DNA of 64,000 bases from Eubacteriales bacterium (GCA_045121195.1 JBGVFO010000044.1:3899-67898), one strand, 5' to 3'; positions 6,425-28,896 are shown, counted from the stretch's first letter. Made by a program: numbers and translations. The notes: generated by a model not told the origin, from the sequence alone.

Positions 6425-7253
6425 TGCTTTGCTCCGTTACCGATAGATTGCGGAGGATGACGTGACGTCCGCGCCAGGCATAGGCGCGCTCGGAGAAGCT
6501 CTCGTCGGTCATGTCTTGGATCCGCCGGTATGTAAGAGCGGGAATGGGGTTTTCGTGGAAAAAGGGAATGGGTGAGGTTACCGTTCCGTTTCGTATTGCT
6601 CGTTTTGTGTGGGGACAGACCTCCTGACAGCGGTCGCAGCCCCAGACCGAGCCGAGGTCGGCGAGCTGCTTTCGTTCTCCGGCGGAAAGCTCGCCCTTCC
6701 TCTGTGTCAGGGCGGACAGGCATTCGGCGGTTTCTCCGCGCAGCATAGGACACGCAGAACGGCACGCGCCGCAGTCCTCACAAAGCGGAGGTGTGTCGGG
6801 AACGGAAAGTGCCAAAGGGGGAGGGGCGCTTGTGATCAGCTCTGCGAGGAAAACGTACGAGCCGTATGCTTCGGTGATCAGAAGTCCGTTTCTTCCGAGA
6901 ACGCCGAGCCCTGCCCGCGCCGCCGCGTTCCTCTCGTCAATAGGCGAGTGGTCGGAGAACATAGCGAAGCGCAAAGAAGGATATTTTTTCCGTAAAACGG
7001 GAAGGATCCGCTCGGATAATTGCTCGACGAACAGATGATAGTCCCGACCTACCGCATAGCGCGAGCAATTCCGTTCGGGGACTTCGCAGGCAGGGGTATG
7101 ATAGGGAATGGCAAAGAGCACGGCGGTGCCGTCGCAGCCGATGCCCACACGGTCCAGCAGATAGGGACGGGGAATCAGACAATCCGCAAGGGCAATGGGC
7201 GCGGAAAGCGCAATGCCGTTTTGCAGAAGCAGCGTTTTTATTTCATTCAGCAT
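6384..7253 (-). CDS. queG: epoxyqueuosine reductase-like 4Fe-4S protein (short QueG form)
   Basis: Motifs YAVGRDYH, GLGVLGRNGLLITEAYGSYVFLAELIT, CEDCGACRSACP and CDRCQEVCP match the QueG family as I recall it. I chose ATG 7253 (MLNEIK) because GGAGGG lies upstream; the track start at 7343 adds 30 poorly supported residues. Confidence 0.65.
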   Translation of the reverse strand: MLNEIKTLLLQNGIALSAPIALADCLIPRPYLLDRVGIGCDGTAVLFAIPYHTPACEVPERNCSRYAVGRDYHLFVEQLSERILPVLRKKYPSLRFAMFSDHSPIDERNAAARAGLGVLGRNGLLITEAYGSYVFLAELITSAPPPLALSVPDTPPLCEDCGACRSACPMLRGETAECLSALTQRKGELSAGERKQLADLGSVWGCDRCQEVCPHTKRAIRNGTVTSPIPFFHENPIPALTYRRIQDMTDESFSERAYAWRGRHVILRNLSVTEQSNESATPKKANEEI

Positions 7254-7442
7254 AGGATCCCTCCTTCCCGATCTTCTTCTGTTATATCTATTATACCATA
7301 TTCTTGCGTCACAATTATACCATATTGCGGTGGAAAATGCCATTCCTCTGTGAATTTTTCAAAATAAATTTTTATTCTTCAAAAAACTGTCACAATCAAG
7401 GTGTATAATGAGCCCGTAAACCAAAGGAAAGGCGGTTGACGT

Positions 7443-8780
7443 ATGAACCAAAATAATTTTGACAACAATTCGTCGGGACAAAACCCCTTTGACGGATATG
7501 ACGTATATTCCAAGCAGTACACACCCAACAAGGAGGGCTATTCCGAGCATAAGCAGCATCGGGGAGGTACCTCGGGGCGAAGCAAGGGAAGAAAACTCAG
7601 AGTCCTTGCCGTGATCTGCATTACGCTGGCGTTTGTACTCCTTTGCTCCGTTGCGGCGGTAATTTCGGCAAAGGTGGCGTTTTCTTATTACAGCAGCCGC
7701 TTTGAGAAAGAGCAGGCGGCACAGGACGCAGAGCGGGAAACCGAGGGGAAGGATACGCAAAGGCTTCCCGCAGAGGAGGCCGATCCGCCGTCCGAAACGG
7801 AAAATTTCTTTTTCTCCTCGGACGAGGACACCGAGATCAAGCTGTCCGACTCTCCCGCCATTCCCGTTGACGGCCAGGTAGGGGATCCCGATCTTACCAA
7901 GGCAGAGGTGGCGGCTCTCGTGGCGGCTTCCGTGGTAGAGATCACGACCTCTGAGACCCATTGGAACGGGCTGGCATATCAGAGCGGCGCGGGAAGCGGC
8001 GTCATCGTAAACGCCAGCGGTGTGATCATTACCAACAATCACGTGATCGAGGCGGCAACCAATATTTCGGTTCGTCTGACCAACGGTAACGTGTATAAGG
8101 CACTTCTCGTTGCAACCGATGCCGAGACCGATATTGCCGTTCTCAAGATTGAGCCGAATGAGGAGCTGACGGTTGCCGTTCGCGGAAACAGTGACAACAT
8201 TACGGTCGGTGAGGAGGTGCTTGCCATTGGCAATCCTCTCGGCGTTCTCGGCGGGACGGTGACCGACGGCATCATCAGCGCTCTTGGCCGCGAGGTGACG
8301 GTAGAGGGCGAAACCATGACGCTTCTTCAGCATAATGCCGCCATCAGTCCCGGTAACTCGGGCGGCGCGCTTTTCAATATGCGCGGCGAGCTGATCGGTA
8401 TCGTAAACGCTAAATATTCCAGTAGCGGCGCCGAGGGGCTTGGCTTTGCCATTCCCATGAACACCGTGATGGAGGTGTATGAGGATCTTTGCGAGTTTGG
8501 CTACGTAAAGGGACGCGCCGATCACGGCCTTACCATTACGACGGATCGTTATTATATCTTCCAGGGCTATCTCTACATTTACAGCTCCCGTTATACCGAT
8601 GAGCTGCAATACGGAGATCGCTTGCTGGCGATCGGGGACGAGTATCCCACAACGGTTGACGAAGCATACGCCATGCTCGATCAATACGAGATCGGCGACA
8701 CGGTTGAGATCACCGTTATCAGAAACGGAAAGCAGGTCAAGGTAAGTCTTGCCATCCGTGAATACGAGCCACAATCTTAA
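7443..8780 (+). CDS. htrA: HtrA/DegP-family trypsin-like serine protease, membrane anchored, C-terminal PDZ-like region
   Basis: 445 aa. N-terminal TM helix (VLAVICITLAFVLLCSVAAVI). Catalytic-region motifs TNNHVI, DIAVLKI and GNSGGALFN. Confidence 0.85.
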   Translation: MNQNNFDNNSSGQNPFDGYDVYSKQYTPNKEGYSEHKQHRGGTSGRSKGRKLRVLAVICITLAFVLLCSVAAVISAKVAFSYYSSRFEKEQAAQDAERETEGKDTQRLPAEEADPPSETENFFFSSDEDTEIKLSDSPAIPVDGQVGDPDLTKAEVAALVAASVVEITTSETHWNGLAYQSGAGSGVIVNASGVIITNNHVIEAATNISVRLTNGNVYKALLVATDAETDIAVLKIEPNEELTVAVRGNSDNITVGEEVLAIGNPLGVLGGTVTDGIISALGREVTVEGETMTLLQHNAAISPGNSGGALFNMRGELIGIVNAKYSSSGAEGLGFAIPMNTVMEVYEDLCEFGYVKGRADHGLTITTDRYYIFQGYLYIYSSRYTDELQYGDRLLAIGDEYPTTVDEAYAMLDQYEIGDTVEITVIRNGKQVKVSLAIREYEPQS

Positions 8781-13578: not shown

Positions 13579-13607
13579 TTGACAAACCCACGAGAAAGTG
13601 CTAAAAT
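13579..13607 (+). promoter_or_regulatory. sigma-A-type promoter of the T-box operon
   Basis: TTGACA (13579-13584), 17-nt spacer, TAAAAT (13602-13607), preceded by a TGC extended -10. Confidence 0.6.
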
Positions 13608-13635
13608 ACGACCATAGTTTCATATTCAATTCAAA

Positions 13636-13904
13636 GGCTATGACCGAAGAGAAGTAAGTGAGAAGAACACGCATAGAGAGTTGTCGGTTGGTGTAAGACA
13701 ACGGTGCCTCTTGCCGAAATACATTTCGTGAGCCGCACACCCAAAGGAACCAACGGGAACCGAGTAGGCTGTGACGGGTGCGCCCGTGATCGCGCTGGGG
13801 TATTTTTGTACCCGATAAGGCCGTTTGCCGTGAGGCGGCGGTGAATTGAGGTGGTAACACGGATTTTATTCGTCCTCTGTAACATTTTACAGGGGCGTTT
13901 TTTA
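13636..13904 (+). promoter_or_regulatory. T-box riboswitch leader, probable Tyr (UAC) specifier
   Basis: - K-turn halves AUGA 13640-43 and UGAGC 13729-33.
- Lower helix CGAAG 13645-49 / UUUCG 13724-28.
- S-turn AGUA 13653-56.
- AG bay AGAGAG 13675-80.
- Distal helix UUGUC/GACAA with loop GGUUGGUGUAA.
- Specifier loop GAAA-UAC-A (UAC = 13720-22).
- T-box sequence AAUUGAGGUGGUAACACGG 13845-62.
- Antiterminator helices GAGG/CCUC and ACGG/UCGU around a UGGUAAC bulge.
- Competing terminator 13874-13895 plus a U-run. Confidence 0.85.
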
Positions 13905-13930
13905 TAGCCCCGGAAAGGGAGGTACTCGAT

Positions 13931-15472
13931 ATGGTACTAAAAGTTGGTTTGTTGGTCGTTTTCTTTAGTGTGATGGTAGCCGTTGGTCTGTATTGTCGCA
14001 AAAACTCTACCGATGTCAAGGGTTTTGTTCTCGGCGGACGCGCGGTTGGACCGTGGCTTACGGCGTTTGCATACGGTACCTCGTATTTCTCCGCGGTTAT
14101 TTTTGTCGGATACGCGGGACAGTTCGGCTGGAAATTCGGTATTGCCTCTACCTGGATCGGTATCGGTAACGCAGTGCTTGGCTCTTTGCTTGCCTGGATC
14201 GTTCTCGGTCGCCGCACCCGCTTGATGAGTCAGCATCTGGAAACCTCTACGATGCCCGAATTCTTTGGAAAACGATACGGAAGCCCGGCGCTGAAGATCG
14301 CGGCGTCCGTGTTGGTCTTTATCTTCCTGATTCCGTATACCGCGTCGCTGTATAACGGTCTTTCACGCCTTTTTGAAATGGCGTTTCCCGGTGTCAGCTA
14401 CAACGTGTGCGTCATCGTAATGGCGGTACTGACGGGAATTTACGTCATTGCGGGCGGTTATATGGCAACGGCGATCAATGACTTTATTCAGGGCGTGATT
14501 ATGCTTGTGGGTATCGTCTTGGTCATTGCCGCGGTTCTCAATACGCAGGGCGGATTTGTGGAAGCGCTGAACGGTCTTGCCAATGTGCAGGTAGGCGAAA
14601 ACGCTCCCGGCGCGTTCAACTCCTTCTTCGGTCCCGATCCCTTGAACCTGATGTTCGTTGTGGTTCTTACGTCCTTGGGAACTTGGGGTCTTCCTCAGAT
14701 GGTGCAGAAATTTTACGCGATCAAGAGCGAAAATGACATCCATAAGGGAACGGTGATCTCCACGCTTTTTGCCGTTGTGGTTGCCGGAGGATGCTACTTC
14801 CTCGGTGGATTTGGTCGACTGTTTGCCGATAAGCTGAACGTTTCCGGTGATATGCCGGCAGGCGGTTACGACTCGATTATTCCCGCTATGCTGGAAAATC
14901 TTCCTAATATCGTGATCGCGGTTGTTATCGTCCTTGTTCTTTCGGCGTCTATGTCAACGCTTTCCTCCTTGGTTCTTGCCTCCAGCTCCACGTTGACGCT
15001 GGATATGATCAAGGGGCACGTGGTCAAAAAGATGACCGAGAAGAAGCAGGTGCTGATTATGCGCGCACTGATCGTTGTGTTTATCGTGATTTCCGCGGTG
15101 ATCGCGATCAACAAGGATAAGCTCGGCTATATTGCCGATATGATGGGAATTTCCTGGGGCGCCCTTGCCGGCGCGTTCCTCGCGCCCTTCCTTTACGGCT
15201 TGTACTCCAAGAAGGTCACCAAGGCGGCGTGCTGGGCGAGCTTTGTGTTCGGTGCCGGTCTTATGGTTGCCAATATGCTGTTCCGCGGCTCGTTCCCCGC
15301 GATCCTACAGTCTCCCATTAACAGCGGCGTGATCGCTATGCTGGGCGGACTTGTGATCGTTCCCATTGTCAGTCTGTTGACACCGAAGCAGGAAAAACGG
15401 GCTGTCGATGAAATGTTTGAATGTTACCAGAAAGAGGTAATGGTAACGTCCAAGGAATCCTTGGGCAAATAA
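13931..15472 (+). CDS. sodium:solute symporter (SSS) family transporter
   Basis: 513 aa, about 13 hydrophobic segments. N-terminal region resembles PutP/PanF/ActP-type SSS carriers. First gene after the T-box leader; RBS GGAAAGGGAGG. Confidence 0.85.
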   Translation: MVLKVGLLVVFFSVMVAVGLYCRKNSTDVKGFVLGGRAVGPWLTAFAYGTSYFSAVIFVGYAGQFGWKFGIASTWIGIGNAVLGSLLAWIVLGRRTRLMSQHLETSTMPEFFGKRYGSPALKIAASVLVFIFLIPYTASLYNGLSRLFEMAFPGVSYNVCVIVMAVLTGIYVIAGGYMATAINDFIQGVIMLVGIVLVIAAVLNTQGGFVEALNGLANVQVGENAPGAFNSFFGPDPLNLMFVVVLTSLGTWGLPQMVQKFYAIKSENDIHKGTVISTLFAVVVAGGCYFLGGFGRLFADKLNVSGDMPAGGYDSIIPAMLENLPNIVIAVVIVLVLSASMSTLSSLVLASSSTLTLDMIKGHVVKKMTEKKQVLIMRALIVVFIVISAVIAINKDKLGYIADMMGISWGALAGAFLAPFLYGLYSKKVTKAACWASFVFGAGLMVANMLFRGSFPAILQSPINSGVIAMLGGLVIVPIVSLLTPKQEKRAVDEMFECYQKEVMVTSKESLGK

Positions 15473-15496
15473 ATAACGGATACGAAAGGAAACGTC

Positions 15497-17131
15497 ATGC
15501 CGATTACCGAAATTTTACAAAAGAATGCGGATTTCTATCCCAACGATGTGAGCCTTGTGGAGATCAATCCTCAGCTTGAGAAGCAGACTCGTATGACGTG
15601 GAGAGAGTACTCTCTGATCGAGTCGAATCCCAACGAGGCGTACCGTCGCGAAATTACCTGGGGCGAGTTTAACAAGAAGGCGAATCGCTTTGCCAATCTT
15701 CTGCTGACGCGAGGCGTAAAGAAGGGCGATAAGGTTGCTATTCTTCTGATGAACTGCATTGAGTGGCTTCCGATCTATTTTGGCGTTCTCAAGGCGGGCG
15801 CTATGGCGGTGCCCTTGAACTACCGCTATGCCTCCGATGAGATCAAATACTGCCTTGAGCTTTCCGATTCCGATTTTATCGTTTTCGGTCCCGAGTTCAC
15901 GGGACGTGTAGAGCAGATCTGTTCTCGCGTGAAGCGCATCAAAACCTGGTTGTATGTGGGTGAGGACTGTCCCACCTTTGCGGAGAGCTACGACAGTCTT
16001 GTTTCCTACTGTTCCTCCAAGAGTCCTGCTATCAAGCTGACGGACGACGACGACGCGGCAATCTACTTCTCCTCGGGAACAACGGGCTTCCCCAAGGCGA
16101 TCATCCATAAGCACAGGAGTCTTGTTCACGCGGCAATGGTAGAGCAGAATCATCATTCCCAGACCAAGGACGACGTGTTCCTTTGCATTCCGCCTCTGTA
16201 TCATACGGGTGCGAAGATGCACTGGTTCGGCAGCTTCCTCGTTGGCGGTAAGGCGGTTCTTCTCAAGGGCATCAAGCCCGAGTGGATCCTTAAGGTCGCC
16301 TCGGAGGAAAAATGCTCCATCGTATGGCTGCTTGTGCCGTGGGCGCAGGATCTTCTGGATGCTGTGGAGCGCGGGGAGCTGAAGCTGGAGGATTACGATC
16401 TTTCACAGTGGCGCTTGATGCATATCGGCGCACAGCCCGTTCCCCCCAGCCTGATCCGTCGTTGGAAGCAGTACTTCCCGAATCACGCCTACGACACCAA
16501 CTACGGTCTTTCCGAGTCCATAGGCCCCGGTTGCGTACACCTTGGCGTGGAAAACGAACATAAGGTTGGCGCCATCGGTAAGGCAGGCTTTGGCTGGGAG
16601 ACCAAAATCGTTGACGAGCAGGGAAACACCGTTGCGCGCGGCGAGGTTGGCGAGCTTGCCGTCAAGGGCCCCGGCGTTATGACGGCGTACTACAAGGATG
16701 AAAAGGCGACTGCCGAGGTGCTTCGCGACGGCTGGCTCTTTACGGGCGATATGGCGACGGAGGACGAGGACGGCTTTATCTTCCTCGTTGACAGAAAGAA
16801 GGACGTTATTATTTCGGGCGGTGAGAACCTGTATCCCGTTCAGATCGAAGATTTCCTGCGCCGCAACGATAAGATCAGCGACGTAGCGGTGATCGGTCTT
16901 CCCGACGCGCGCCTTGGCGAGATCGCCACGGCGATCATTCAGGTCAAGGAGGGAATGACCCTGACCGAGGAGGAGGTCGAGGACTTCTGTCTTGACCTTC
17001 CCAGATACAAGCGTCCTCGCAAGATCATTTTCGCAGACGTTCCCAGAAATCCTACGGGAAAGATCGAGAAGCCCAAGCTTCGCGAGATCTACTGCGGCGG
17101 AAGTCTTGTAGCACAGCAGAACGAAATTTAA
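15497..17131 (+). CDS. AMP-forming acyl-CoA synthetase/ligase (FadD/ANL superfamily)
   Basis: 544 aa. YFSSGTTGFPKAI AMP-binding motif, TGD, and a C-terminal PRNPTGKI motif. Confidence 0.85.
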   Translation: MPITEILQKNADFYPNDVSLVEINPQLEKQTRMTWREYSLIESNPNEAYRREITWGEFNKKANRFANLLLTRGVKKGDKVAILLMNCIEWLPIYFGVLKAGAMAVPLNYRYASDEIKYCLELSDSDFIVFGPEFTGRVEQICSRVKRIKTWLYVGEDCPTFAESYDSLVSYCSSKSPAIKLTDDDDAAIYFSSGTTGFPKAIIHKHRSLVHAAMVEQNHHSQTKDDVFLCIPPLYHTGAKMHWFGSFLVGGKAVLLKGIKPEWILKVASEEKCSIVWLLVPWAQDLLDAVERGELKLEDYDLSQWRLMHIGAQPVPPSLIRRWKQYFPNHAYDTNYGLSESIGPGCVHLGVENEHKVGAIGKAGFGWETKIVDEQGNTVARGEVGELAVKGPGVMTAYYKDEKATAEVLRDGWLFTGDMATEDEDGFIFLVDRKKDVIISGGENLYPVQIEDFLRRNDKISDVAVIGLPDARLGEIATAIIQVKEGMTLTEEEVEDFCLDLPRYKRPRKIIFADVPRNPTGKIEKPKLREIYCGGSLVAQQNEI

Positions 17132-17150
17132 CCACGGAAAGGGTACACAT

Positions 17151-18884
17151 ATGAAGAAATTGATGCTTGGTAATGCGGCGGTGGCGCAGGGAGCATATGA
17201 AGCAGGCGTAAGCGTTGTCGCCTCCTATCCCGGCACCCCCAGCACCGAGATTACCGAAAATATCGTAAAATACGACGAGATCTACGCCGAGTGGTCGCCT
17301 AACGAAAAGGTGGCGGCAGAGGTTGCCATCGGTGCCGCCATCGGCGGTGCGAGAAGCATGTCCTGTATGAAGCACGTAGGTCTTAACGTTATGGCTGACC
17401 CCGTATTTACCGTCAGTTATACCGGCGTCAACGGCGGTCTGGTTTTCTGCGTAGCGGACGACCCCGGAATGCACTCCTCCCAGAACGAGCAGGATTCCCG
17501 ACACTACGCGAAGGCGTCCAAGATCCCTATGCTTGAGCCTGCGGATTCCTCGGAATGTAAGGAGTTCACAAAGCTTGCCTATGACCTCTCCGAGCAGTTT
17601 GACACGCCTATGTTCCTCCGTCTTTCCACCAGAGTTTCTCACTCGCAGAGCCTTGTGGAGATCGGCGAGAGAGCAGACGTGGCGCTTAAGCCTTACGAAA
17701 AAAATATCGGAAAATACGTGATGATGCCCGCCAATGCGGTCAAGCGTCACGTTGAGGTAGAGAAGAGAACCGACGCCCTCCGCGCGTTTGCGGAAAACTG
17801 CGAGCTCAATACCGTTGAGGATAACGGCGCCAAGATCGGCGTGATCTCTGCGGGCATCTCCTATATGTACGCCAAGGAAGCCCTTGGCGACAAGGTGAAT
17901 TATCTGAAGCTCGGTATGGTATGGCCGCTTCCCGAAAAGCTGATCCGTGAGTTTGCCACAAAGGTAGAAAAGCTGTACGTCATCGAGGAGCTGGATCCCT
18001 TTATCGAGGAGCACTGCAAGGCGCTTGGTGTAGAGGTGATCGGCAAGGATGTGTTCACCCTTCTTGGTGAGTACACCCCCGCAATGATCGCAAAGGCGAT
18101 CCTTGGCGAGGAGCCTGCTCCCTTCGCGGCGGCAGAGGAGACGATCCCCAACCGTCCTCCCGTTCTTTGCGCGGGCTGTCCTCACCGCGGAACCTTCTAC
18201 GTTCTGAAAAAGCTGGGTCTTGTGGTAAGCGGCGACATCGGATGTTATACTCTCGGTGCCGTTGCTCCCTTGGCTTCGGTAGATACCACCATTTGTATGG
18301 GGGCCTCCGTCAGCGCCGCCCTCGGTATGGCAAAAGCAAGAGGCGCGGAATTCAACAAAAAGCTGGTTTCGGTCATTGGTGACTCCACCTTTATGCACTC
18401 GGGTATTACGGGTCTTGTAGACATCGTATATAACAAGGGCGCCAATACCGTTATTATTCTCGATAACTCCATTACGGGTATGACCGGCCACCAGGACAAT
18501 CCCACCACGGGAAGAACCATTCGTGGCGAGGCAACCAAGCAGGTCGATCTGATCGCCCTTTGCAAATCCATCGGTGTGGAGCACGTCGTGGTTGCCGATC
18601 CCTTCGACGTAAAGAACTTTGAGAAGGTGGTCAAGGAAGAGGTGGATCGCGACGAGCCCTCGGTTATTATCGCCCAGCGTCCCTGCGCTCTCCTCAAAAC
18701 CGTTAAATACACCGGTTACTGCGAGGTGACCGATAAGTGCCGTAATTGTAAGATGTGTATGAAGCTTGGTTGTCCCGCCATTACCGCGGACGAAAAGGGC
18801 GTACATATCGATCCCAATCAGTGCAACGGATGCGGACTTTGCGTAAACGTATGTCCCTTCGGTGCCATTGAAAAGAAAGCGTAA
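17151..18884 (+). CDS. iorA: indolepyruvate:ferredoxin oxidoreductase subunit alpha
   Basis: 577 aa. TPP-enzyme architecture with a C-terminal 2x[4Fe-4S] ferredoxin motif (CRNCKMCMKLGCP ... CNGCGLCVNVCP). Followed by iorB. Confidence 0.9.
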   Translation: MKKLMLGNAAVAQGAYEAGVSVVASYPGTPSTEITENIVKYDEIYAEWSPNEKVAAEVAIGAAIGGARSMSCMKHVGLNVMADPVFTVSYTGVNGGLVFCVADDPGMHSSQNEQDSRHYAKASKIPMLEPADSSECKEFTKLAYDLSEQFDTPMFLRLSTRVSHSQSLVEIGERADVALKPYEKNIGKYVMMPANAVKRHVEVEKRTDALRAFAENCELNTVEDNGAKIGVISAGISYMYAKEALGDKVNYLKLGMVWPLPEKLIREFATKVEKLYVIEELDPFIEEHCKALGVEVIGKDVFTLLGEYTPAMIAKAILGEEPAPFAAAEETIPNRPPVLCAGCPHRGTFYVLKKLGLVVSGDIGCYTLGAVAPLASVDTTICMGASVSAALGMAKARGAEFNKKLVSVIGDSTFMHSGITGLVDIVYNKGANTVIILDNSITGMTGHQDNPTTGRTIRGEATKQVDLIALCKSIGVEHVVVADPFDVKNFEKVVKEEVDRDEPSVIIAQRPCALLKTVKYTGYCEVTDKCRNCKMCMKLGCPAITADEKGVHIDPNQCNGCGLCVNVCPFGAIEKKA

Positions 18885-18897
18885 GGAGGGAAAGAGC

Positions 18898-19470
18898 ATG
18901 ACAGATACGAAAAAGATCATGATCGTCGGCGTTGGCGGACAGGGAACCCTCCTCGCCAGCCGCATTCTCGGAAACACCGTGATCGGTGAGGGATATGACG
19001 TAAAGGTATCCGAGGTTCACGGAATGAGCCAGCGCGGCGGAAGCGTCGTGACCTACGTGAAGTACGGTGAAAAGGTCTGGTCTCCCATCATCGACAAGGG
19101 GGAGGCGGATCTGATCCTCGCCTTCGAGATGCTGGAGGCGTACCGTGCGTTGCCCTATCTTAAGAAGGGCGGCAAGATGATCGCCAACACCCAGGAGATG
19201 TCGCCGATGCCCGTGATTACGGGTGCGGCAAAGTATCCCGAGAATATTGCCGAGAAGCTTTCTTCCGCGGCGGATGTGACATGGATAGATGCCCTCGCCC
19301 TTGCCCGCGAGGCAGGAAACACCAAGGCAGTCAACGTGGTTCTTATCGGTCTTATGGCAAAGAACACTGAGATCCCCTATGAAAAGTGGGTCGAGGCGGT
19401 AAAGAAGACGGTTCCCGAGAAGTTCCTTGAGGTCAATCTCAAGGCGTTTGATCTCGGTTACAATCACTGA
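18898..19470 (+). CDS. iorB: indolepyruvate:ferredoxin oxidoreductase subunit beta
   Basis: MTDTKKIMIVGVGGQGTLLASRILG is the gamma-type oxidoreductase fold. ATG 18898 follows AAGGAGGG; the track start at 18862 lies inside iorA. Confidence 0.85.
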   Translation: MTDTKKIMIVGVGGQGTLLASRILGNTVIGEGYDVKVSEVHGMSQRGGSVVTYVKYGEKVWSPIIDKGEADLILAFEMLEAYRALPYLKKGGKMIANTQEMSPMPVITGAAKYPENIAEKLSSAADVTWIDALALAREAGNTKAVNVVLIGLMAKNTEIPYEKWVEAVKKTVPEKFLEVNLKAFDLGYNH

Positions 19471-19500
19471 ATTTTACAAAAAAAGAAAGGACTGATCCCT

Positions 19501-20811
19501 TTGGCATTCTATCAAAAAGAAATCGAATGTATGCCCCGTGAGGAGCTTCGCAAACTGCAAAGTGAGCGCCTCTGCTGGCAGGTAAACCGTATGTACGAGC
19601 GTGTTGAGCTGTTCCGCAAGCGTATGGATGAGCTTGGACTCAAGCCCTCGGATATCAAGGGTGTAGAGGACCTTCCCAAGCTTCCGTTCTCCTATAAGCA
19701 GGATCTGCGTGACTATTATCCTTACGGACTGTTCGCAGAGCCTATGAAGGACATCGTTCGTGTCCACGCTTCTTCGGGTACGACGGGAAAGAAGATCGTT
19801 GTCGGTTATACCAAGAAGGACCTTGAGGATTGGGCGGACGGTGTTGCCAGAATGCTGATCGCCATCGGCGAGGGAGCGGATTCCTTCGCGCAGGTCTCTT
19901 ACGGCTACGGTCTGTTTACCGGCGGTCTTGGCGCACACGGCGGCGCGGAGAAGATCGGTGCGACCGTGATTCCCACCTCTGCGGGCAATACCCAGATGCA
20001 GATCCAGACCATGATCGACTTTGGCTCAACGGTGCTGTTCTGTACCCCCTCTTACGCGCTTTACCTTGGCGAAACAGTTGAGGAAATGGGTGTGAAGGAT
20101 CAGCTTTCTCTTCGCGCGGGCGTGTTCGGTGCAGAGCCCTGGACCGAGGATATGCGCCGTGCCATTGAGGATAAGCTTGGCATCAAGGCATACGATATTT
20201 ACGGACTTTCCGAGATCATGGGTCCCGGTGTCAGCGGTGAGTGCGAGTACCAGTGCGGCATGCACGTTTGGGAGGATATGTTCATCCCCGAGATCATCGA
20301 TCCCGAAACCCTTGAAGTTCTTCCTTACGGAGAAAAGGGAGAGCTGGTATTCACTACCATTACCAAGGAGGGATTCCCCCTCATTCGCTACCGTACCCGT
20401 GATATCTGCTCTTTGAATGCCGAGCCCTGTAAGTGCGGCAGAACCCATATCCGTATGGCAAAGCCTACGGGACGAAGCGACGATATGCTGATCATTCGCG
20501 GCGTCAACGTCTTCCCGTCCCAGATCGAGGAGGTCCTCATCAAGTTCGGTGAGGCGTCAGGCATCACTCCCAACTATCAGATCATCGTTGACCGTGTCAA
20601 CAATAACGATACCTTTGACGTTATGGTAGAAATGAGCGAGCATCTGTTTGCCGATGACGTCAAATCCATCGAGAAGGTGGAAAAGACGCTGACCGAGCAG
20701 CTTCGCTCCACCCTTGGCATCGGCGCCAAGGTTCACCTCGTTAATCCCAAGTCGATCACGCGCAGCGAGGGAAAAGCAAAACGCGTTATCGATAAGCGTA
20801 AGCTTTCGTAA
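19501..20811 (+). CDS. paaK: phenylacetate-CoA ligase family protein (PaaK-like)
   Basis: 436 aa. N-terminus [18 protein letters not shown] and [14 protein letters not shown] are typical of PaaK-type ligases. TTG start; ATG 19531 is possible. Confidence 0.85.
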
Positions 20812-20823
20812 GGAGGAACCGAT

Positions 20824-21225
20824 ATGCTTGTAAAACAGCTTTCTATTTTCGTAGAGAATAAGCCCGGCAGACTGTCGGCTATTATCAATCTTCTTGGACA
20901 GCATCACGTAAACCTGAGCGCCCTGTCGCTGGCGGATACCACCAACTTCGGTGTACTGCGTCTGATTGCTGACAAGACCGACGTGGCGCAGGAGGTCCTC
21001 CGCGAGGAGGGCATCGTATCCAAGTGCGCCGACGTTCTGGCGGTTGCTATTGACGACACCCCCGGTTCGCTGACGGGAATTCTCGATCTCTTCAATGAGA
21101 ACGGCGTTTCCGTTGAGTATATGTACGCCTTCAGCGCAAAGCAGGAGGGCAAGGCACAGATGGTGGTCAAGACCGACTCCCTGGAGAAGGCGGAAGCCCT
21201 TCTTAAGGACTATATTGCAAAATAA
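20824..21225 (+). CDS. ACT-domain protein (tandem ACT)
   Basis: 133 aa. MLVKQLSIFVENKPGRLSAI and a second repeat VLAVAIDDTPGSLTGIL. This is the small ACT protein that commonly follows PaaK-like genes. Confidence 0.75.
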   Translation: MLVKQLSIFVENKPGRLSAIINLLGQHHVNLSALSLADTTNFGVLRLIADKTDVAQEVLREEGIVSKCADVLAVAIDDTPGSLTGILDLFNENGVSVEYMYAFSAKQEGKAQMVVKTDSLEKAEALLKDYIAK

Positions 21226-21231
21226 AATTTG

Positions 21232-21263
21232 CCCCGAGGCAACGCCTCGGGGCTTCTTTTTTT
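21232..21263. terminator. bidirectional intrinsic terminator between convergent operons
   Basis: CCCCGAGGC-aac-GCCTCGGGG (9 bp) followed by a T-run. A-rich on the other side. Confidence 0.7.
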
Positions 21264-22260
21264 ATGCCATCGTTTCCAGCATTTTGAGGGTGACCTCATA
21301 CTGACAGGGCTCGCCTGCGACGAAACGGTCAAATTCTTTCGCCATATATTTCGCCATACGGCAGGTCTCGGGACCAAGGCTTCCCGCGATATGAGGAGTC
21401 AGGAAGCAGTTGGGGAGAGAATAGAAGGGGTGTCCCTCGACGGGGGGCTCGGGAAAGGTAACGTCAAGCACTGCCGTAAGATCGGGGCGTTCCCGGAGGA
21501 TGCGTACGAGATCGTCCTCGACCACCTGCGCGCCACGACCGGTGTTTATGAAGGTAGCGCGGGGAAGCATCCGCTTGAAGCAATCGTAATTCAACATTCC
21601 CTGGGTCGCGGCATTGTTGGCAAGATGGTTGGAAACCACCGAGCAGGTGGAGAACAGCTCTTCAAGAGAGCAAGGGAATACGCCCAGCTCCTCGGCGCGC
21701 TCCTGTGACAGGAAGGGATCAAAGACCATGACCTTGAGATCAAAATTTCGGAGATGCTTCGCCACAAGAGAGCCGATCATTCCCGCACCGATGAGTCCCA
21801 CTCTTTGGCGGAAGTTGCCGGGAAAGGCGTCACGGATCGCTTGCGCCTCCGCTACGTTTCCACCCGACATAAGGGCGCTGTGCGTGTAGAAGCCCTTACC
21901 GGCAAGAAGAATTTGCGAGAGAGCGTACTCGGCAACGGGAACGGCGTTTGCCGCCCAGGCGCTGAATACGTGAACGCCGCAGTTCAGAAAGGGACGGGCA
22001 AAGCTTTGCACGGTACCCGCGGCGTAAAAGACGGCGCGGAGCTTCGGGAAGCAGCGCGTGATCTCCTCCTCGGAGAATCGGGGCATCCCCCAGGTGGAGA
22101 AAATAAATTCGGTGTCGGCAAAGCGTTCAGGCTCCGTCAGTACGTCCTCCTTGGAGAAGATGGTTTCACAGAGATCGGCAAAGCCCTTCAGATATGCCCT
22201 TGTATCTTCGTCGTATACGGTGGGAATGTGCTTGGTGCTGCCCAAAAAGATCGATTTCAT
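21262..22260 (-). CDS. D-isomer-specific 2-hydroxyacid dehydrogenase family protein
   Basis: 332 aa. NAD-binding VGLIGAGMIGSLVAKHL, and RGAQV ... TPHIAG catalytic region. Confidence 0.8.
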   Translation of the reverse strand: MKSIFLGSTKHIPTVYDEDTRAYLKGFADLCETIFSKEDVLTEPERFADTEFIFSTWGMPRFSEEEITRCFPKLRAVFYAAGTVQSFARPFLNCGVHVFSAWAANAVPVAEYALSQILLAGKGFYTHSALMSGGNVAEAQAIRDAFPGNFRQRVGLIGAGMIGSLVAKHLRNFDLKVMVFDPFLSQERAEELGVFPCSLEELFSTCSVVSNHLANNAATQGMLNYDCFKRMLPRATFINTGRGAQVVEDDLVRILRERPDLTAVLDVTFPEPPVEGHPFYSLPNCFLTPHIAGSLGPETCRMAKYMAKEFDRFVAGEPCQYEVTLKMLETMA

Positions 22261-23012
22261 TTTCTGTTTGCTCCTTCCATCAGCTTGTGAAGCGTTTCCG
22301 CCTCTTTCTTAAGGGATTCCGGCTTGTTGTCCGGCATAAATTCCAAAAGAAGCGCTTGCGAACCGTCAAAGCATGACAGATATTTTTCCCAAATCGCCAT
22401 CCCGTCGGCGAGGGGGAATTTCTCCTTTTCCTTCCATTGGAATACGTGAATATTCTCGGTATAGGGCGCGATCGCCTTCGCGTAGGCGAAATTGACCTCG
22501 TCGGTGCGGAACTGATTGGGCTGCCAGTACATACGAAGGGCGGGGGAGTTCACCGCCTCCATCAGCGTAAGTGCGCCTTTAAGGCAGTTGGTAAAGGTAT
22601 TGTTATGACATTCCATACAGAGAACTACGCTCTCCGCTTCCGCGATCTGTGCCGCCTTTTTTGCCTCGGTGAGAAGGTGATCTTTTTGCTCGGCGGTCAT
22701 ATCCTCATAGTTTTTGTCACCGCACCAAAGGCGAAGAATATGTGTGCCGAGGATCTTTGCGGCGGCAATATAGCCGTGAAGCTCGTCGGTATCGTGTACG
22801 CCAAGCTTGAAATAGGTTCCGTAGGAGGAGCAGGAGATCCCCGACTCCTTCTGCAAGGCTACGATATGGCGAAGCCGTTCCGTGTCGGCGTAAGGTGCGT
22901 GAACGTCACTCCCCCATTCAATAGCGGAGAGTCCGGCATCACGGCAAAGAGCAACGATCTGCTCGGGGGAAAGGGAACGGAAGGATATGGAAACAAGTCC
23001 CGATTGAAACAT
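22257..23012 (-). CDS. sugar phosphate isomerase/epimerase (xylose-isomerase-like TIM barrel)
   Basis: 251 aa. AP-endonuclease-2/TIM-barrel-type sequence (IEWGSDVHAP ... LCMECHNNT). 4-nt overlap with the downstream gene. Confidence 0.7.
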   Translation of the reverse strand: MFQSGLVSISFRSLSPEQIVALCRDAGLSAIEWGSDVHAPYADTERLRHIVALQKESGISCSSYGTYFKLGVHDTDELHGYIAAAKILGTHILRLWCGDKNYEDMTAEQKDHLLTEAKKAAQIAEAESVVLCMECHNNTFTNCLKGALTLMEAVNSPALRMYWQPNQFRTDEVNFAYAKAIAPYTENIHVFQWKEKEKFPLADGMAIWEKYLSCFDGSQALLLEFMPDNKPESLKKEAETLHKLMEGANRK

Positions 23013-23021
23013 GGTAGCCTC

Positions 23022-24890
23022 CTAATTTTCGATGGTTTCTCGGTATTCGCGCCACATGGACTCAAAGCAGGTATCGGCATTGGGAATGGGACGAACGTGG
23101 CGCCAGGTGATACGGCAGACGCCGTTGTCCATCCGCACCTCTTGAATACGCTCCCTTGCAGGTACCGCATCGGTAGCGCAGCTACATCCCTCATAGAGGG
23201 CAGAGCCACGGGAGATCCCCACGGTGTGGGCATAATCCAGCATGGCGGAGAGCACCGCTTCCTGCACCGTTAAGGTGTCGCGGAGACGGTAGCGCTGAGG
23301 AAGGGCGTCGTCCGCATGAAGAGCGGAGGGCAGGGCGTACAGACGCCGCGTCACAGCCTCTTTCATTGTCTGCATTTCTGCCGTGCTTCGTATTGCGGCG
23401 GCACAGCGACTCATTTCGTTTTGCGTCAAGGCAAGAAGATCCTTCGCGGCTTGACCGTCGGAAAGGCCGTCACGACAGAATTCTTGATTTTTTTCGATTG
23501 CCGCCGCGGCGATCCTGATAAATTTCGCTTCGTCGAGTAACGCCTTTGGTGCGCGGGAGATGTACTGTGCGGCGCGAAGCGCACCCACCTGTCCCGCATT
23601 CAAGGCGCTTCCGCCCGGGCGGGTCACACCGTGAGTGCCGGCGCACTCGCCAATGGCGAACAGTCCCTTGACGTCGGATTGCCAGTCGGCATCCACCGAA
23701 ATGCCGCCGTTATTATGCTGAGCGCAAAGAGCGATCTCAAGCGGCTCGAGGGTGAGATCCACGCCCTTTTCGGCATAAAGATCAATGGCGGGCTGATTCA
23801 TTTTGGAAAGCCGCTCGATGGGGGTACCAAAGCAGGCGCCCGCGTTTTTCAGGTAGACAAACGCTTCCTCCGACAGCTTTTCAAAGTCAATGCACTCCAA
23901 GCCGAAGGGGTTTTTTGTGAAATCAAGGAATACGCGCCGTCCCATGGACTGCTCACGGTGAACGAGAAGGTCGATCTGAGACGAGCCGCTTTTTGCTTTT
24001 CTTGCGTCAAAGGGCCACTGATAGCCCTTGAGGAAAAGCAGGGAAAGTGCTTCGTAAGGATCGGCAAAGGTATCCGCAAGGAACTCGCGCTCCTTGCCGT
24101 TTTCGTCCATCGCGATCAGACGGGGAAGTACCTGCCTATAGGTGCCGGATACGTTCCAGCGAGGCGCAACCGACGCAAGACCGTATTGCCATTCGGTCAT
24201 ATTCTGAAGGGATGCGCCTGCCGAGAGAGCCAGTCCCGTGGAGCCTGTTTGACTTTCGGGATACACGGTATTGGCATAGATGCCCGCAGGACCGCCCGTT
24301 GCCAAGATCACGTTTTCGCAACGGAACGTTACGAAGGTGTTGTCGGCAAGATTCAAGCAAAGAAGTCCGCAAGCTCGGTCGCCGTCCGTTAAGATCTCAA
24401 CGGCAAGAAGTCCGTCGTGAACGGGAACGCCGAGCGCCGCGGCTTTTCTTTCCAGTGCTTCGGTCATATACTTTGACGTGAGGGGACCTGCGCTTGTGGC
24501 GCGGGCGAAGGGATCGTGATCGGTCTTGTAGCCGATATACTCACCGTAAGCGTTGTGGGGAAAGGGAACGCCCGCCTCGCAGAGATAGTGGAAGCAACGG
24601 GCGGAGAGTGCCGCCTCGCAAAGGGCGTGATCCCCGTCGACACAGCCGCCGGCGAAAAGGTCGCTTGCCATAGCGCGGACGCTGTCTGGCGCGTCTCCGC
24701 CGAGCCCCAGCTTATAATAGGTCTGCTTGTCGCTTCCCGTGTTGCGGGAGGTGCCGCAACGGACGCCCTCGGTTACGATACAAACCGACTTGCGACCGTC
24801 CTCACGAATGCGACAAGCTGCGCTGAAGCCTGCGGCACCCGAGCCGATCACGACAGCGTCATATTGCAATATCATAGGATTCATACGCAC
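23022..24890 (-). CDS. FAD-binding oxidoreductase (fumarate reductase/succinate dehydrogenase flavoprotein-like)
   Basis: 622 aa. YDAVVIGSGAAGFSAA dinucleotide-binding motif. GLFAIGECAG ... HGVTRPGGSALN C-terminal FAD motif. Confidence 0.75.
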   Translation of the reverse strand: MRMNPMILQYDAVVIGSGAAGFSAACRIREDGRKSVCIVTEGVRCGTSRNTGSDKQTYYKLGLGGDAPDSVRAMASDLFAGGCVDGDHALCEAALSARCFHYLCEAGVPFPHNAYGEYIGYKTDHDPFARATSAGPLTSKYMTEALERKAAALGVPVHDGLLAVEILTDGDRACGLLCLNLADNTFVTFRCENVILATGGPAGIYANTVYPESQTGSTGLALSAGASLQNMTEWQYGLASVAPRWNVSGTYRQVLPRLIAMDENGKEREFLADTFADPYEALSLLFLKGYQWPFDARKAKSGSSQIDLLVHREQSMGRRVFLDFTKNPFGLECIDFEKLSEEAFVYLKNAGACFGTPIERLSKMNQPAIDLYAEKGVDLTLEPLEIALCAQHNNGGISVDADWQSDVKGLFAIGECAGTHGVTRPGGSALNAGQVGALRAAQYISRAPKALLDEAKFIRIAAAAIEKNQEFCRDGLSDGQAAKDLLALTQNEMSRCAAAIRSTAEMQTMKEAVTRRLYALPSALHADDALPQRYRLRDTLTVQEAVLSAMLDYAHTVGISRGSALYEGCSCATDAVPARERIQEVRMDNGVCRITWRHVRPIPNADTCFESMWREYRETIEN

Positions 24891-24894
24891 TCCG

Positions 24895-25644
24895 TTACAG
24901 TCGTCTTAAGTGGAAGCCGCCGTCAATATCGAGTGCCTGCCCCGTCATATAGGGGAGCCCACCCGAAAGAAGAGAAAATACGGCGGCGGCAATGTCCTCG
25001 GGGGTGCCCCATCGCTTGATGGGGAGCAAGCCGCCGTCAATCAGCGCATCGTATTTTTCCTTGACGCCGTCGGTCATATCGGTGGCGATGATGCCCGGAC
25101 GAATCTCGTTAACGGGAATGCCGTACTCCGCAAGGCGGTCGGCAAAGAGCTTCGTTATCATAGAAACTCCTGCCTTGGAAATGCAATACTCACCACGATT
25201 GGGGGAGCTGGTATAAGCGGACAGGGAAGAGATGTTACAGATCTGACCGCGAAGACCGTTTACGGGGGAATTGTTCCGCATCTCGCGTGCAACTGCTTGG
25301 GTGAGAAACAGCGTACCCTTGGTGTTGATGTCCATCACGTAGTCATAGCTTTCCTCGGTCATCTCCAGAAGATCGGCGCGGACGCGGGGGGCAACTCCTG
25401 CTACGTTAACAAGACCGTCGATCTGTCCGAAAGTGTCGAGGGCGTGCTTGACAAGCCGCGCCCTGTCCTCGCCGCAGGCAAGATCACCGGCGATGTATGT
25501 GAAATTCTCCGAGTTGAATTTCTTCGTAACGGTATCGGCGTCCGTACGGCTCATTCCCGTGACACGGTAGCCGTTATCAAGGAGAAGACGGACGACCGCC
25601 TCACCAATGCCGCGGGCGCAGCCGCTGACGATAATATGCTTCAT
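24895..25644 (-). CDS. short-chain dehydrogenase/reductase (SDR)
   Basis: 249 aa. SGCARGIGEA cofactor motif and YCISKAG catalytic motif. Confidence 0.85.
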   Translation of the reverse strand: MKHIIVSGCARGIGEAVVRLLLDNGYRVTGMSRTDADTVTKKFNSENFTYIAGDLACGEDRARLVKHALDTFGQIDGLVNVAGVAPRVRADLLEMTEESYDYVMDINTKGTLFLTQAVAREMRNNSPVNGLRGQICNISSLSAYTSSPNRGEYCISKAGVSMITKLFADRLAEYGIPVNEIRPGIIATDMTDGVKEKYDALIDGGLLPIKRWGTPEDIAAAVFSLLSGGLPYMTGQALDIDGGFHLRRL

Positions 25645-25645
25645 G

Positions 25646-27436
25646 TTATATTCTCCTTACGCGGATGGTAACGGTCTCTTGCTTTTCAAACGCGATATTG
25701 ATGCGATAGAGCACTGCGCTTTTCCAAGAGAGCTCCAGCTTTTTATTTCCGTCAAAGCGTACGTCCTCTACCGAGATCGCGCCGCCGTCGCAGGAAATTT
25801 CGTACTTGCCGTCAAGTATGACGACGTTGTCCTTGACCTCGGGGCAATAAGGTGTCATCAGATGCTCAACCACCGATCCGTTTTCGCCGACAAAGGTAAA
25901 GCGGTCGGTTACGGAAAGTTCCGCCTCGCCCAACTGAAGGGTTCTTGTGAAATCGCCAAGACCGCTTTCCTCGGGATAAGCCTTGGGCAAGGAAGTGGTA
26001 ACGCGTCCCTCCTCTGCAAGGAAGGAATCGGCACGGAATTTCCATCCGTCGTGTTGATCAATGCCGTTTACCGTGGGAAGATTATGGTAGCCCGACTGCA
26101 TCGTCCATATGGTATAACGTTCTTTTCCAAAGGTCTGACGGGTATAGTCGCCGACGCCCGCGTCAATAAGGACGGGCGTGCCGTTATCGTACAGAATAAA
26201 GTTTCCGACGTCGTTGTGATTGTGGAACTCTCCGTTATTTCCGCCCTTTGCTCCAAGAACGAATCCGTTGTTGCGGAGGGTCGCTACCTGAAGATCGGGG
26301 AGGTAATAAAGCGCGGGGGGCGCGAAGGGGGTATCGGTATTGAGGATCTCCTGTCGGAGAGAAAGATCAAGGAGAGCGCGGCGAATACAGATGGTGTCAA
26401 CGGAAAGACGGATATGAGAGACCTTTTTCTTAAGTTTGACGGCCTCCGCCGCAAGCGCGCACATTTGAGGCTGGTTGGTCTCCTTTCCGTAGGCGTAGAT
26501 CATCGTGATGGAGCTGAGATTTTGGCTGCCGTCACCGAAATTTGCCACCTTGCCGTTGCCAACGTATACCTTTGTAATGTAGGAGCCGATGTTTCGCACC
26601 TTCTCGTCAACAAACAGATCCAGCTTTCCGCCGGTTGCCACCTTCAGCTGATACAGGACCTCAAACAGGGAGGCACCTGCGCGGATCCAGTAGCCGGGAC
26701 CCTCGTCGCATCCACCGTCGGCGGGCATACAGTCGTAGTAATGGGTAACCTCGGTGAGGATCTTTTCAATCGCCTTGCGAAGACGGAGAGGATTATGCTC
26801 CAGAAGGAGAAAGGCGGAGAGAACGTTGGAGAGGATCCAAGGATTCCAGTTGTTTACCTTCTTGAAATATCCCATCCACCAGAAATCACGGTGAGTGAGG
26901 TAGGGAACGAAGATGCGGCGTTCCATTTCATAGTCAATTCGGTCGATGATCTCAGGGCAGAAGGCGAGAAGGGGGTCGCGGAGAAGCACGCTGATAAAGG
27001 CGAGATTTTCCGCCGTTTCTCCGGCGAACAGATCAATGTAAGGATATTCGGGACTCTGTATGTTGCCGGGAGCGCCGAACCAGTGTGCGGAAACACCCCA
27101 GTAGCTTTCCTCGCAGATGGTAAAAATGCCGTTGGTGATCTGAGGGAGGAAGCGTCCCTTGTTTTCCATCAATTCGCCGAGAGACAGACAAACGAGCGCA
27201 CGTCTGCGGGCGAAATGGATGTCTTCCATAATTATTCTGTCGCCCGTTTTTTTGAATTCCATATAGTCGGTCGCCTTGATGATGGGCCAATCGTATTCCA
27301 TATGCTTTTCCGCTTCGGCTATAATGACTTCGTCATAGTGAGCATCCCAGAAAGCACGGTCATTGACGTCGGGGAACAACCGGCCCGAAAAATCCAGGGT
27401 GGAAAGATCGGTATTTTTTATTATGGTCTTAAACAT
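25646..27436 (-). CDS. heparinase II/III-like family protein, no signal peptide
   Basis: 596 aa. HNHNDVGNFILY ... IDAGVGDYT ... SGYHNLPTVNG resembles the Hepar_II_III C-terminal region as I recall it. The N-terminus is not hydrophobic. Confidence 0.65.
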   Translation of the reverse strand: MFKTIIKNTDLSTLDFSGRLFPDVNDRAFWDAHYDEVIIAEAEKHMEYDWPIIKATDYMEFKKTGDRIIMEDIHFARRRALVCLSLGELMENKGRFLPQITNGIFTICEESYWGVSAHWFGAPGNIQSPEYPYIDLFAGETAENLAFISVLLRDPLLAFCPEIIDRIDYEMERRIFVPYLTHRDFWWMGYFKKVNNWNPWILSNVLSAFLLLEHNPLRLRKAIEKILTEVTHYYDCMPADGGCDEGPGYWIRAGASLFEVLYQLKVATGGKLDLFVDEKVRNIGSYITKVYVGNGKVANFGDGSQNLSSITMIYAYGKETNQPQMCALAAEAVKLKKKVSHIRLSVDTICIRRALLDLSLRQEILNTDTPFAPPALYYLPDLQVATLRNNGFVLGAKGGNNGEFHNHNDVGNFILYDNGTPVLIDAGVGDYTRQTFGKERYTIWTMQSGYHNLPTVNGIDQHDGWKFRADSFLAEEGRVTTSLPKAYPEESGLGDFTRTLQLGEAELSVTDRFTFVGENGSVVEHLMTPYCPEVKDNVVILDGKYEISCDGGAISVEDVRFDGNKKLELSWKSAVLYRINIAFEKQETVTIRVRRI

Positions 27437-27449
27437 AAAACGCCTCCTG

Positions 27450-28760: not shown

Positions 28761-28896
28761 AATCATCCCTCCTGCCGCTATTATACCGCGTTTTGTGGAG
28801 CAGGTGTTATAAACATATTGCGTATTTTTATGTAAATCTTGCTTTTTTTCAAAAAATATGCTACAATGTAACCGAAAAGGAAGCGAGGGGTGAAAT

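Follow-up and report, generated by a model that had tools for sequence, protein, structure and literature searches.

Results

Organization of the locus

The present work concerns a predicted operon in a 64,000-nt stretch of DNA from a Eubacteriales bacterium (GCA_045121195.1, JBGVFO010000044.1:3899-67898, one strand), referred to here as the window, from whose first position all coordinates are counted. A promoter and a T-box leader RNA are followed on the plus strand by six open reading frames (ORFs) for, in order, a sodium:solute symporter (SSS) permease, a FadD-type AMP-forming acyl-CoA ligase, the alpha and beta subunits of an indolepyruvate:ferredoxin oxidoreductase (IOR; iorA and iorB), a PaaK-like ligase and a protein with a pair of ACT domains. 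This arrangement had been described in an initial annotation of the same DNA, and all of its parts are present in the sequence. The leader is predicted to respond to tyrosine starvation, and the operon is interpreted below, with some confidence, as a tyrosine salvage route.

The sigma-70-type promoter (13579-13607, plus strand) is near consensus with 11/12 matches, and consists of the -35 element TTGACA (13579-13584), a 17-nt spacer and the extended -10 element TGcTAAAAT (13599-13607), in which a TG extension lies upstream of the -10. The six genes are separated by gaps of 24, 19, 13, 30 and 12 nt in gene order, with a ribosome-binding site (Shine-Dalgarno) in each gap. The operon terminator (21231-21263, plus strand) has a 10-bp stem with 9 GC pairs at 21231-21253, and a T run that extends to 21263; it serves both directions, being common to the convergent gene at 21262-22260 on the minus strand. 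Terminator-like matches inside the genes have weak T tails and their total shows no excess over shuffled sequence (13 against 11.6 +/- 2.9), while the single promoter-like plus-strand site within the unit is a weak 9/12 match inside iorA.

It had been proposed earlier that the gaps of 12-30 nt hold no internal terminator and that the six genes form a single transcription unit. Both proposals are supported at the level of sequence by the junctions as read, the tight gaps with their ribosome-binding sites, the weakness of the internal promoter-like site and terminator matches that do not rise above shuffles. The gene order and boundaries of the initial annotation also held, with two small corrections: the true start of iorB is the ATG at 18898 (ribosome-binding site AGGAGGG) and not the GTG at 18862, and the terminator stem begins at 21231.

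The T-box leader RNA

The leader RNA extends over 13631-13905 (plus strand) and comprises stem I with its specifier loop, a stem II/IIA-B region, stem III, the antiterminator with the T-box sequence and an intrinsic terminator. The Rfam model RF00230 matches 13631-13880 (plus strand) over its full length at 107.4 bits against a gathering score of 93 (E 9e-23), which is the sole Rfam match above threshold across the 64-kb window. The distal motifs of stem I, AGAGAG and GGUUGGUGUAAG, are present upstream of the specifier and are of the AGAGA and GGUGNRA types. The specifier codon UAC, for tyrosine (13720-13722, plus strand), lies at the 3' end of the specifier loop in the context GAA-A-UAC-A (13716-13723); a purine follows it, as is usual, and pairing restarts one base past this purine. 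With its UAC specifier at the canonical position, the window leader is a predicted tyrosine sensor.

The conserved T-box sequence AAUUGAGGUGGUAACACGG is found at 13844-13862. In the antiterminator (13848-13877, plus strand) GAGG (13848-13851) pairs with CCUC (13874-13877), and the bulge UGGU (13852-13855) would fit the 3'-terminal ACCA of a tRNA whose discriminator base is A. The leader terminator (13874-13905, plus strand) has the stem CCUCUGUAA-CAUU-UUACAGGGG at 13874-13895, followed by the T run CGUUUUUUAU. Since CCUC at 13874-13877 serves both as the 3' arm of the antiterminator and as the 5' arm of the terminator, the two folds are mutually exclusive. Folding of the single leader sequence by minimum free energy yielded z = 0.01 and a non-canonical fold, and because this gave no information a covariance model and comparative analysis were used.

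The leader alignment contained the window leader and 32 homologues (33 in total). The specifier UAC and the segment GGUGGUA, which includes the UGGU bulge, are invariant in 33/33 leaders while the helices vary. When the alignment is read against the consensus structure, 96.3% of cells are paired, whereas slid partners gave 39-53%. In 26/39 pairs there are compensatory double changes, a number that fell to 9-14 in controls with slid partners, and the observed covariation values were reached in none of 500 shuffles. All seven related leaders that were run through Rfam, the most divergent included, pass the threshold at the predicted place (93.4-118.5 bits). The strong covariation, together with the invariance of UAC and GGUGGUA, indicates a functional RNA that has long been under selection and whose tyrosine specificity is fixed. 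The earlier identification of a T-box leader was thus borne out by the Rfam score, the terminator/antiterminator pair and the covariation, and can be narrowed specifically to tyrosine. The sequence identifies the element as a T-box, and by the same features the leader RNA reads as an ordinary member of that family.

Encoded proteins

The SSS permease (513 aa; 13931-15472, plus strand) matches PF00474 at 191.5 bits. Its scores against the NCBIfam equivalogs are all far below the respective cut-offs (PutP 205 bits against 515, PanF 155 against 328, MctC 57 against 670 and ActP 24 against 1099), and its nearest solved structures, the SGLTs (E 1e-15), are too distant to indicate a substrate. The next gene encodes a FadD/4CL-type class I adenylate-forming acyl-CoA ligase (544 aa; 15497-17131, plus strand) with matches to PF00501 (256 bits) and PF13193 (42.8 bits), whose nearest solved structures are FadD13, FadD5, feruloyl-CoA synthetase and 4CL. 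The motifs SSGTTGFPK (P-loop), YGLSE (A5) and PTGKI (A10 lysine) are intact and place it among the ANL enzymes. No NCBIfam equivalog cut-off was reached by this ligase, and a homologue search returned only relatives at least 83% identical with generic names, which gave no functional lead and no other clades. In its operon setting it is a candidate 4-hydroxyphenylacetate-CoA ligase.

IorA, the alpha subunit of the indolepyruvate (arylpyruvate):ferredoxin oxidoreductase (577 aa; 17151-18884, plus strand), matches TIGR03336 at 749.1 bits against a cut-off of 650.9 and contains the thiamine pyrophosphate motif (GDS...N) and two Fe-S cysteine clusters. IorB, the beta subunit (190 aa; 18898-19470, plus strand), matches NF005325 at 285.9 bits against a cut-off of 230. 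As both subunits exceed the NCBIfam IOR equivalog cut-offs, their assignment in the initial annotation stands, and by sequence IorAB is an ordinary IOR.

The fifth gene (19501-20811, plus strand) encodes a PaaK-type arylacetate-CoA ligase of 436 aa with a TTG start. It scores 542 bits against TIGR02155, below the cut-off of 646.3, and matches the solved PaaK structures 2y27 (E 1.6e-132) and 4r1l (E 1e-115), with its catalytic motifs intact; because the cut-off is missed and yet the solved structures are very close, it was filed as PaaK-type with a putative substrate. The two ligases of the window are related at the superfamily level only, and the domains and intact motifs agree with the earlier view that both are AMP-forming. 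The last gene (20824-21225, plus strand) encodes the ACT-domain-pair protein of 133 aa, which matches PF19571 (ACT_8) at 96.7 bits against a gathering score of 23.5, and PDB entry 2f06 (E 3e-23), deposited as a conserved hypothetical protein with no stated function. It is considered a putative amino-acid-binding regulatory partner.

Survey of related loci

A scan with IorA, taking one genome per species, yielded 80 loci whose IorA is 76-91% identical and which cover close IorA relatives only; the six proteins were mapped across them by tblastn and the leader by nhmmer. All 80 loci belong to metagenome-assembled genomes of uncultured gut or rumen Clostridia/Oscillospiraceae. A T-box upstream of the iorA operon, for which the initial annotation had suggested a survey of relatives, was found in 32/80 loci, always on the coding strand and directly upstream of the first gene. 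Carriers include JAZSPB01, JAZNHF01 and the Congzhengia sp. genome JAZOCK01. The order T-box-SSS-ligase-IorAB is seen in 19/32, the remaining 13/32 being T-box-ligase-IorAB without the permease; 22 of the 32 run on into paaK-ACT and 8 are clearly without these two genes. The FadD-type ligase gene is immediately upstream of iorA in 32/32 T-box loci and in most of the others. Among iorAB loci that lack this ligase and have enough upstream sequence, a T-box is present in 0/9, as against 32 T-box loci that all have the ligase (Fisher p = 0.002). The paaK and ACT genes are almost always adjacent in the relatives and constitute a separable, dispensable two-gene module.

As 13 T-box loci are without the permease and 8 without paaK-ACT, neither can be counted in the conserved core, which on this survey is a predicted tyrosine T-box together with the FadD-type ligase and IorAB. 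The gene set that had been proposed as a unit was therefore upheld for the T-box and IorAB and revised for the ligase, whose conserved representative is the FadD-type (32/32) and not PaaK; the transporter part likewise stood for the window and the 19 loci that have it, with the permease turning out to be optional. The position of the leader directly before the FadD-type ligase in the 13 loci without permease, and the window gaps, which leave no room for a promoter, indicate that T-box control reaches the enzymes and is not confined to the permease.

In the IorA tree, T-box operons occur across the whole clade and are interleaved with T-box-less ones. This spread suggests that the T-box has long been retained, and the pattern fits an ancestral leader with repeated loss. 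In one relative only the 3' part of a T-box, the terminator region, is recognisable upstream of the ligase (L005:7992-8082) and there is no Rfam call; the remnant has the look of a leader in decay and agrees with repeated T-box loss in the clade. Another leader family was sought with Rfam in seven T-box-less relatives and none was found, these loci having plain promoters or short unclassified leaders.

Variation among the relatives

Several loci depart from the window in gene content. In L027 (4077-5363) the slot of the FadD-type ligase is taken by a further PaaK paralog with 53% identity to the window PaaK, which gives the order SSS-PaaK'-IorAB-PaaK-ACT. It looks like a non-orthologous replacement, and its taking of the ligase position suggests that the FadD-type and PaaK-type ligases are equivalent in role. 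The permease and the FadD-type ligase are separated in three T-box operons (L012:2935-3726, L023:7552-8343 and L055:7438-8241) by a gene for an Amidohydro_2 protein (PF04909, about 265 aa); by eye only, the region that immediately precedes the ligase in L060 resembles this gene. The Amidohydro_2 family includes reversible aromatic (de)carboxylases.

Four T-box-less loci (L052, L065, L067 and L078) have a different SSS paralog, about 40% identical. A short leader common to the four, about 150 nt upstream of the permease start, has repeated GTAGTAYGG-like motifs, of which one copy lies near the promoter and another overlaps the ribosome-binding site; it may be another unclassified regulatory element of the same pathway. 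A second T-box-like leader lies within a few kb of the ior operon in L017 (16712-16460, minus strand) and L031 (18060-18255, plus strand), where it precedes a fusion protein of 762-770 aa with helix-turn-helix (XRE), cupin and AMP-binding ligase domains; a T-box before such a putative regulator-ligase fusion is unusual. A further T-box just downstream of the ACT gene in L004 (10071-10308) has an apparent specifier UGC and the bulge UGGA, consistent with a cysteine type. It precedes an unannotated 429-aa ORF, and a cysS-like ORF, recognised by eye from its N-terminal sequence, lies about 2 kb downstream.

The spacing of the genes also varies. In L006 a 1416-nt gap splits iorA and iorB, elsewhere a closely coupled pair, and holds a 448-aa ORF (6561-7907) with weak GH26 and Big_7 matches. 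In the closest relative, L001 (IorA 91% identical), the ligase and iorA lie about 250 nt apart (4512-4766), as do iorB and paaK (7084-7335), compared with 19 and 30 nt in the window, and these wide gaps may hold internal regulatory elements.

Neighbouring genes in the window

The convergent gene at 21262-22260 (minus strand) encodes a D-isomer-specific 2-hydroxyacid dehydrogenase, which could in principle interconvert aryl-lactate and arylpyruvate. The flanking genes, this dehydrogenase included, were considered as members of the pathway and rejected, as they are not syntenic across the 80 related loci. Further downstream on the minus strand, 22257-29703 encodes a xylose-isomerase-like TIM barrel, an FAD_binding_2 protein (622 aa), an SDR protein, a heparinase II/III-like protein and an OYE-like flavoprotein. 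This oxidoreductase-type cluster, next to which a divergent AraC-family regulator is located, is possibly a sugar-acid or glycan utilisation locus. An Aminotran_5 gene at 35759-36925 was likewise rejected as the pathway aminotransferase, since it belongs to a different (class-V) aminotransferase family.

Discussion

Proposed pathway and its direction

T-boxes activate genes when the cognate tRNA is uncharged, and in verified T-boxes the specifier always fits the function of the controlled gene (Wels 2008, PMC2494555). An operon that is induced by tyrosine shortage should then raise the supply of tyrosine. The reading that we favour, and hold to be somewhat more likely than not, is salvage of tyrosine from 4-hydroxyphenylacetate by reductive carboxylation, in which the direction, what the permease and each ligase act on and what the ACT protein does are predictions from gene content and regulation.

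On this proposal, uncharged tRNA-Tyr would bind the leader by pairing of its anticodon GUA with the UAC specifier and of its 3' end with the UGGU bulge, which would favour the antiterminator over the terminator at 13874-13905 and allow RNA polymerase to enter the six-gene operon. The SSS permease would import the substrate, 4-hydroxyphenylacetate or possibly tyrosine itself, and the FadD-type AMP-forming ligase would convert the acid to 4-hydroxyphenylacetyl-CoA. The PaaK-type ligase may perform the same activation or use indoleacetate or phenylacetate instead. The thioester would be carboxylated to 4-hydroxyphenylpyruvate by IorAB, at the expense of reduced ferredoxin and CO2, and an aminotransferase encoded elsewhere would convert this product to tyrosine. 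The ACT-pair protein probably assists PaaK as a sensor of amino acids.

The anabolic direction is favoured by the combination of predicted induction on tyrosine starvation, two AMP-forming ligases and the lack of Pta and kinase genes. In a 2026 study, the oxidoreductase of catabolic clusters that convert tyrosine to 4-hydroxyphenylacetate was shown to be accompanied either by a phosphotransacylase plus kinase or by ADP-forming ligases, and the AMP-forming ligase beside a Bacteroides IOR was argued to indicate biosynthesis (PMC13285125). Genes for Pta, an acyl kinase or an ADP-forming ligase, the marks of such catabolic clusters, are absent from the window operon. The chemistry has precedents as well, in the IOR-dependent incorporation of aryl acids by Methanococcus maripaludis (cited in PMC4162585) and in rumen anaerobes that make phenylalanine from phenylacetate (Allison 1965, cited in PMC7356843). 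The aryl-acid salvage put forward in the initial annotation retains its T-box, now narrowed to tyrosine, single unit, AMP-forming ligases and IorAB, with the FadD-type ligase and not PaaK as their conserved partner.

A bolder form of the proposal, which we advance tentatively and with clearly less assurance than salvage itself, is that the FadD-type ligase is a dedicated 4-hydroxyphenylacetate-CoA ligase. With IorAB it might then constitute a tyrosine-specific pathway that is switched on by uncharged tRNA-Tyr and perhaps replaces synthesis through tyrA in a broad clade of Oscillospiraceae, uncultured inhabitants of gut and rumen.

Alternative explanations

Several considerations weigh against tyrosine salvage. 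The match of the UGGU bulge to tRNA-Tyr presupposes that the discriminator base of bacterial tRNA-Tyr is A73, and a tRNA-Tyr gene sought in the tRNA clusters of related loci to check this base was not found there. A search for aromatic aminotransferase, tyrA and aro genes in the 64-kb window likewise found none. None of the close relatives of the FadD-type ligase is characterised, so that another acid could be its substrate, and the permease is closer to the PutP and PanF profiles than to the monocarboxylate and acetate permeases, so that tyrosine import is possible. About 26 related ligase-iorAB operons are without any T-box, having just a plain promoter or a short leader of no known class, from which it follows that control by tyrosine starvation is not obligatory for this module. 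Finally, IOR is reversible, and in Bacteroides thetaiotaomicron, where it stands beside a PaaK-type ligase, it reportedly has a share in the formation of phenylacetate, a catabolic role (PMC13285125). This last precedent would allow the whole operon to be catabolic, oxidising arylpyruvate to arylacetyl-CoA for energy, with the T-box being non-functional or controlling the permease alone. However, induction by uncharged tRNA-Tyr would then destroy the precursor of a scarce amino acid, AMP-forming ligases do not conserve the energy of the thioester, the companion genes of catabolic clusters are missing, and purifying and compensatory selection clearly acts on the leader, which in 13 loci comes right before the ligase. 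A catabolic operon is accordingly regarded as very improbable.

The two other explanations to be weighed leave the direction as proposed and alter its specificity or its transport step. The ligase-IorAB pathway could be anabolic and yet not specific to tyrosine, turning several aryl or other acids into 2-oxoacids with the tyrosine T-box serving this lineage as a proxy for a general shortage of aromatic amino acids. Such breadth would agree with two different ligases in one operon, with the many relatives that use the ligase-IorAB module without a T-box, and with characterised IORs that take phenyl-, hydroxyphenyl- and indolepyruvate (PMC13285125). It accords poorly with the UAC specifier in all 33 leaders over a deep tree, with no switch to phenylalanine or tryptophan codons, and with the strict co-occurrence of the T-box and the FadD-type ligase, and we judge it unlikely. 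Somewhat less unlikely, though still on the improbable side, is that the regulation and enzymology are as proposed while the permease imports tyrosine, the aryl acid entering by another route or by diffusion. PutP and PanF are indeed the best NCBIfam matches of the permease, ahead of MctC and ActP, and 13 T-box operons manage without it; but every one of these matches is far under its equivalog cut-off, the permease is co-transcribed with acid-activating enzymes, and we know of no tyrosine transporter in the SSS family. T-box-controlled transporters usually bring in the cognate amino acid, and those of the 2008 survey match the specifier amino acid, although the SSS family is missing among the T-box-regulated transporter families listed there (PMC2494555).

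Relation to known systems

The tyrosine T-boxes of the Bacillus subtilis tyrS type have the same RNA architecture as the window leader, with a UAC specifier, a UGGN bulge and a terminator/antiterminator switch, and follow the same logic, by which uncharged tRNA-Tyr activates genes of tyrosine supply (PMC2494555). The 2008 survey records tyrosine T-boxes only before tyrS, an NhaC transporter, a tyrosine biosynthesis operon and phenylalanine-4-hydroxylase, the last three in the Bacillus cereus group, and includes no oxidoreductase or salvage genes and no SSS transporters under T-box control (PMC2494555). In the window, by contrast, the leader stands before genes for an SSS permease, two acyl-CoA ligases and a ferredoxin-dependent 2-oxoacid oxidoreductase, classes that are not in that survey and were not met in connection with a T-box in the open-access literature searched.

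The proposed chemistry is that of the M. maripaludis route (Porat et al., as cited in PMC4162585), in which an aryl acetate is converted to the aryl-acetyl-CoA, by IOR to the arylpyruvate and by transamination to the amino acid. As cited there, that system is archaeal and without a T-box, whereas the window operon is bacterial, has a FadD-type ligase as its conserved partner and is under predicted tyrosine-specific control. The Bacteroides iorAB-paaK clusters share IorA, IorB and a PaaK-type AMP-forming ligase with the window, and biosynthesis was suggested for them on the same thermodynamic argument (PMC13285125); 4r1l is a close relative of the window PaaK-type ligase. Compared by description only, the Bacteroides cluster has neither a T-box nor a FadD-type ligase mentioned for it (PMC13285125).

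The HpdDEFG/HpdJ/HpdK system of Clostridium scatologenes handles the same metabolites with a ferredoxin-dependent 2-oxoacid oxidoreductase, but this is a VOR-like enzyme of four subunits, accompanied by a phosphotransacylase and a kinase that make ATP, and the system is induced by growth on tyrosine (PMC13285125). The window differs in its IOR-type enzyme, its AMP-forming ligases and its predicted induction by tyrosine shortage. The conversion of phenylacetate to phenylalanine in the rumen (Allison 1965) matches in physiology and habitat, the related loci being from rumen and gut metagenomes; as cited, that work is physiological, concerns phenylalanine and does not assign genes or regulation.

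A search of the open-access full-text literature returned no paper joining T-box with indolepyruvate and none of relevance on T-box specifier and phenylacetate. The earlier statement that no description of a T-box-controlled iorAB/paaK operon was known therefore holds for this literature and for the 2008 survey (PMC2494555). Taken singly, the T-box mechanism, the aryl-acid chemistry and the iorAB-paaK-(ACT) cluster are known already. What appears to be new is the wiring of a tyrosine T-box to an aryl-acid pathway, the FadD-type ligase as conserved partner of IOR and an SSS permease under T-box control.

Biological significance

The make-or-break direction of bacterial IOR/arylacetate-ligase clusters in the gut is still argued, on thermodynamics and one catabolic phenotype. 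A switch that senses the cognate tRNA on these genes is independent, sequence-level evidence for biosynthesis, although not proof. It also puts forward a specific enzyme that can be tested as the bacterial 4-hydroxyphenylacetate-CoA ligase still missing, and suggests a sink for aryl acids (4-hydroxyphenylacetate and phenylacetate) from which host-relevant metabolites such as p-cresol and phenylacetylglutamine derive.

Overall, the T-box regulon, which takes in synthetases, de novo biosynthesis and amino-acid transporters, would be widened to precursor salvage by reductive carboxylation. If the proposal is true, gut and rumen Oscillospiraceae would build tyrosine from the fermentation waste of their neighbours, tapping the 4-hydroxyphenylacetate pool that feeds p-cresol production.

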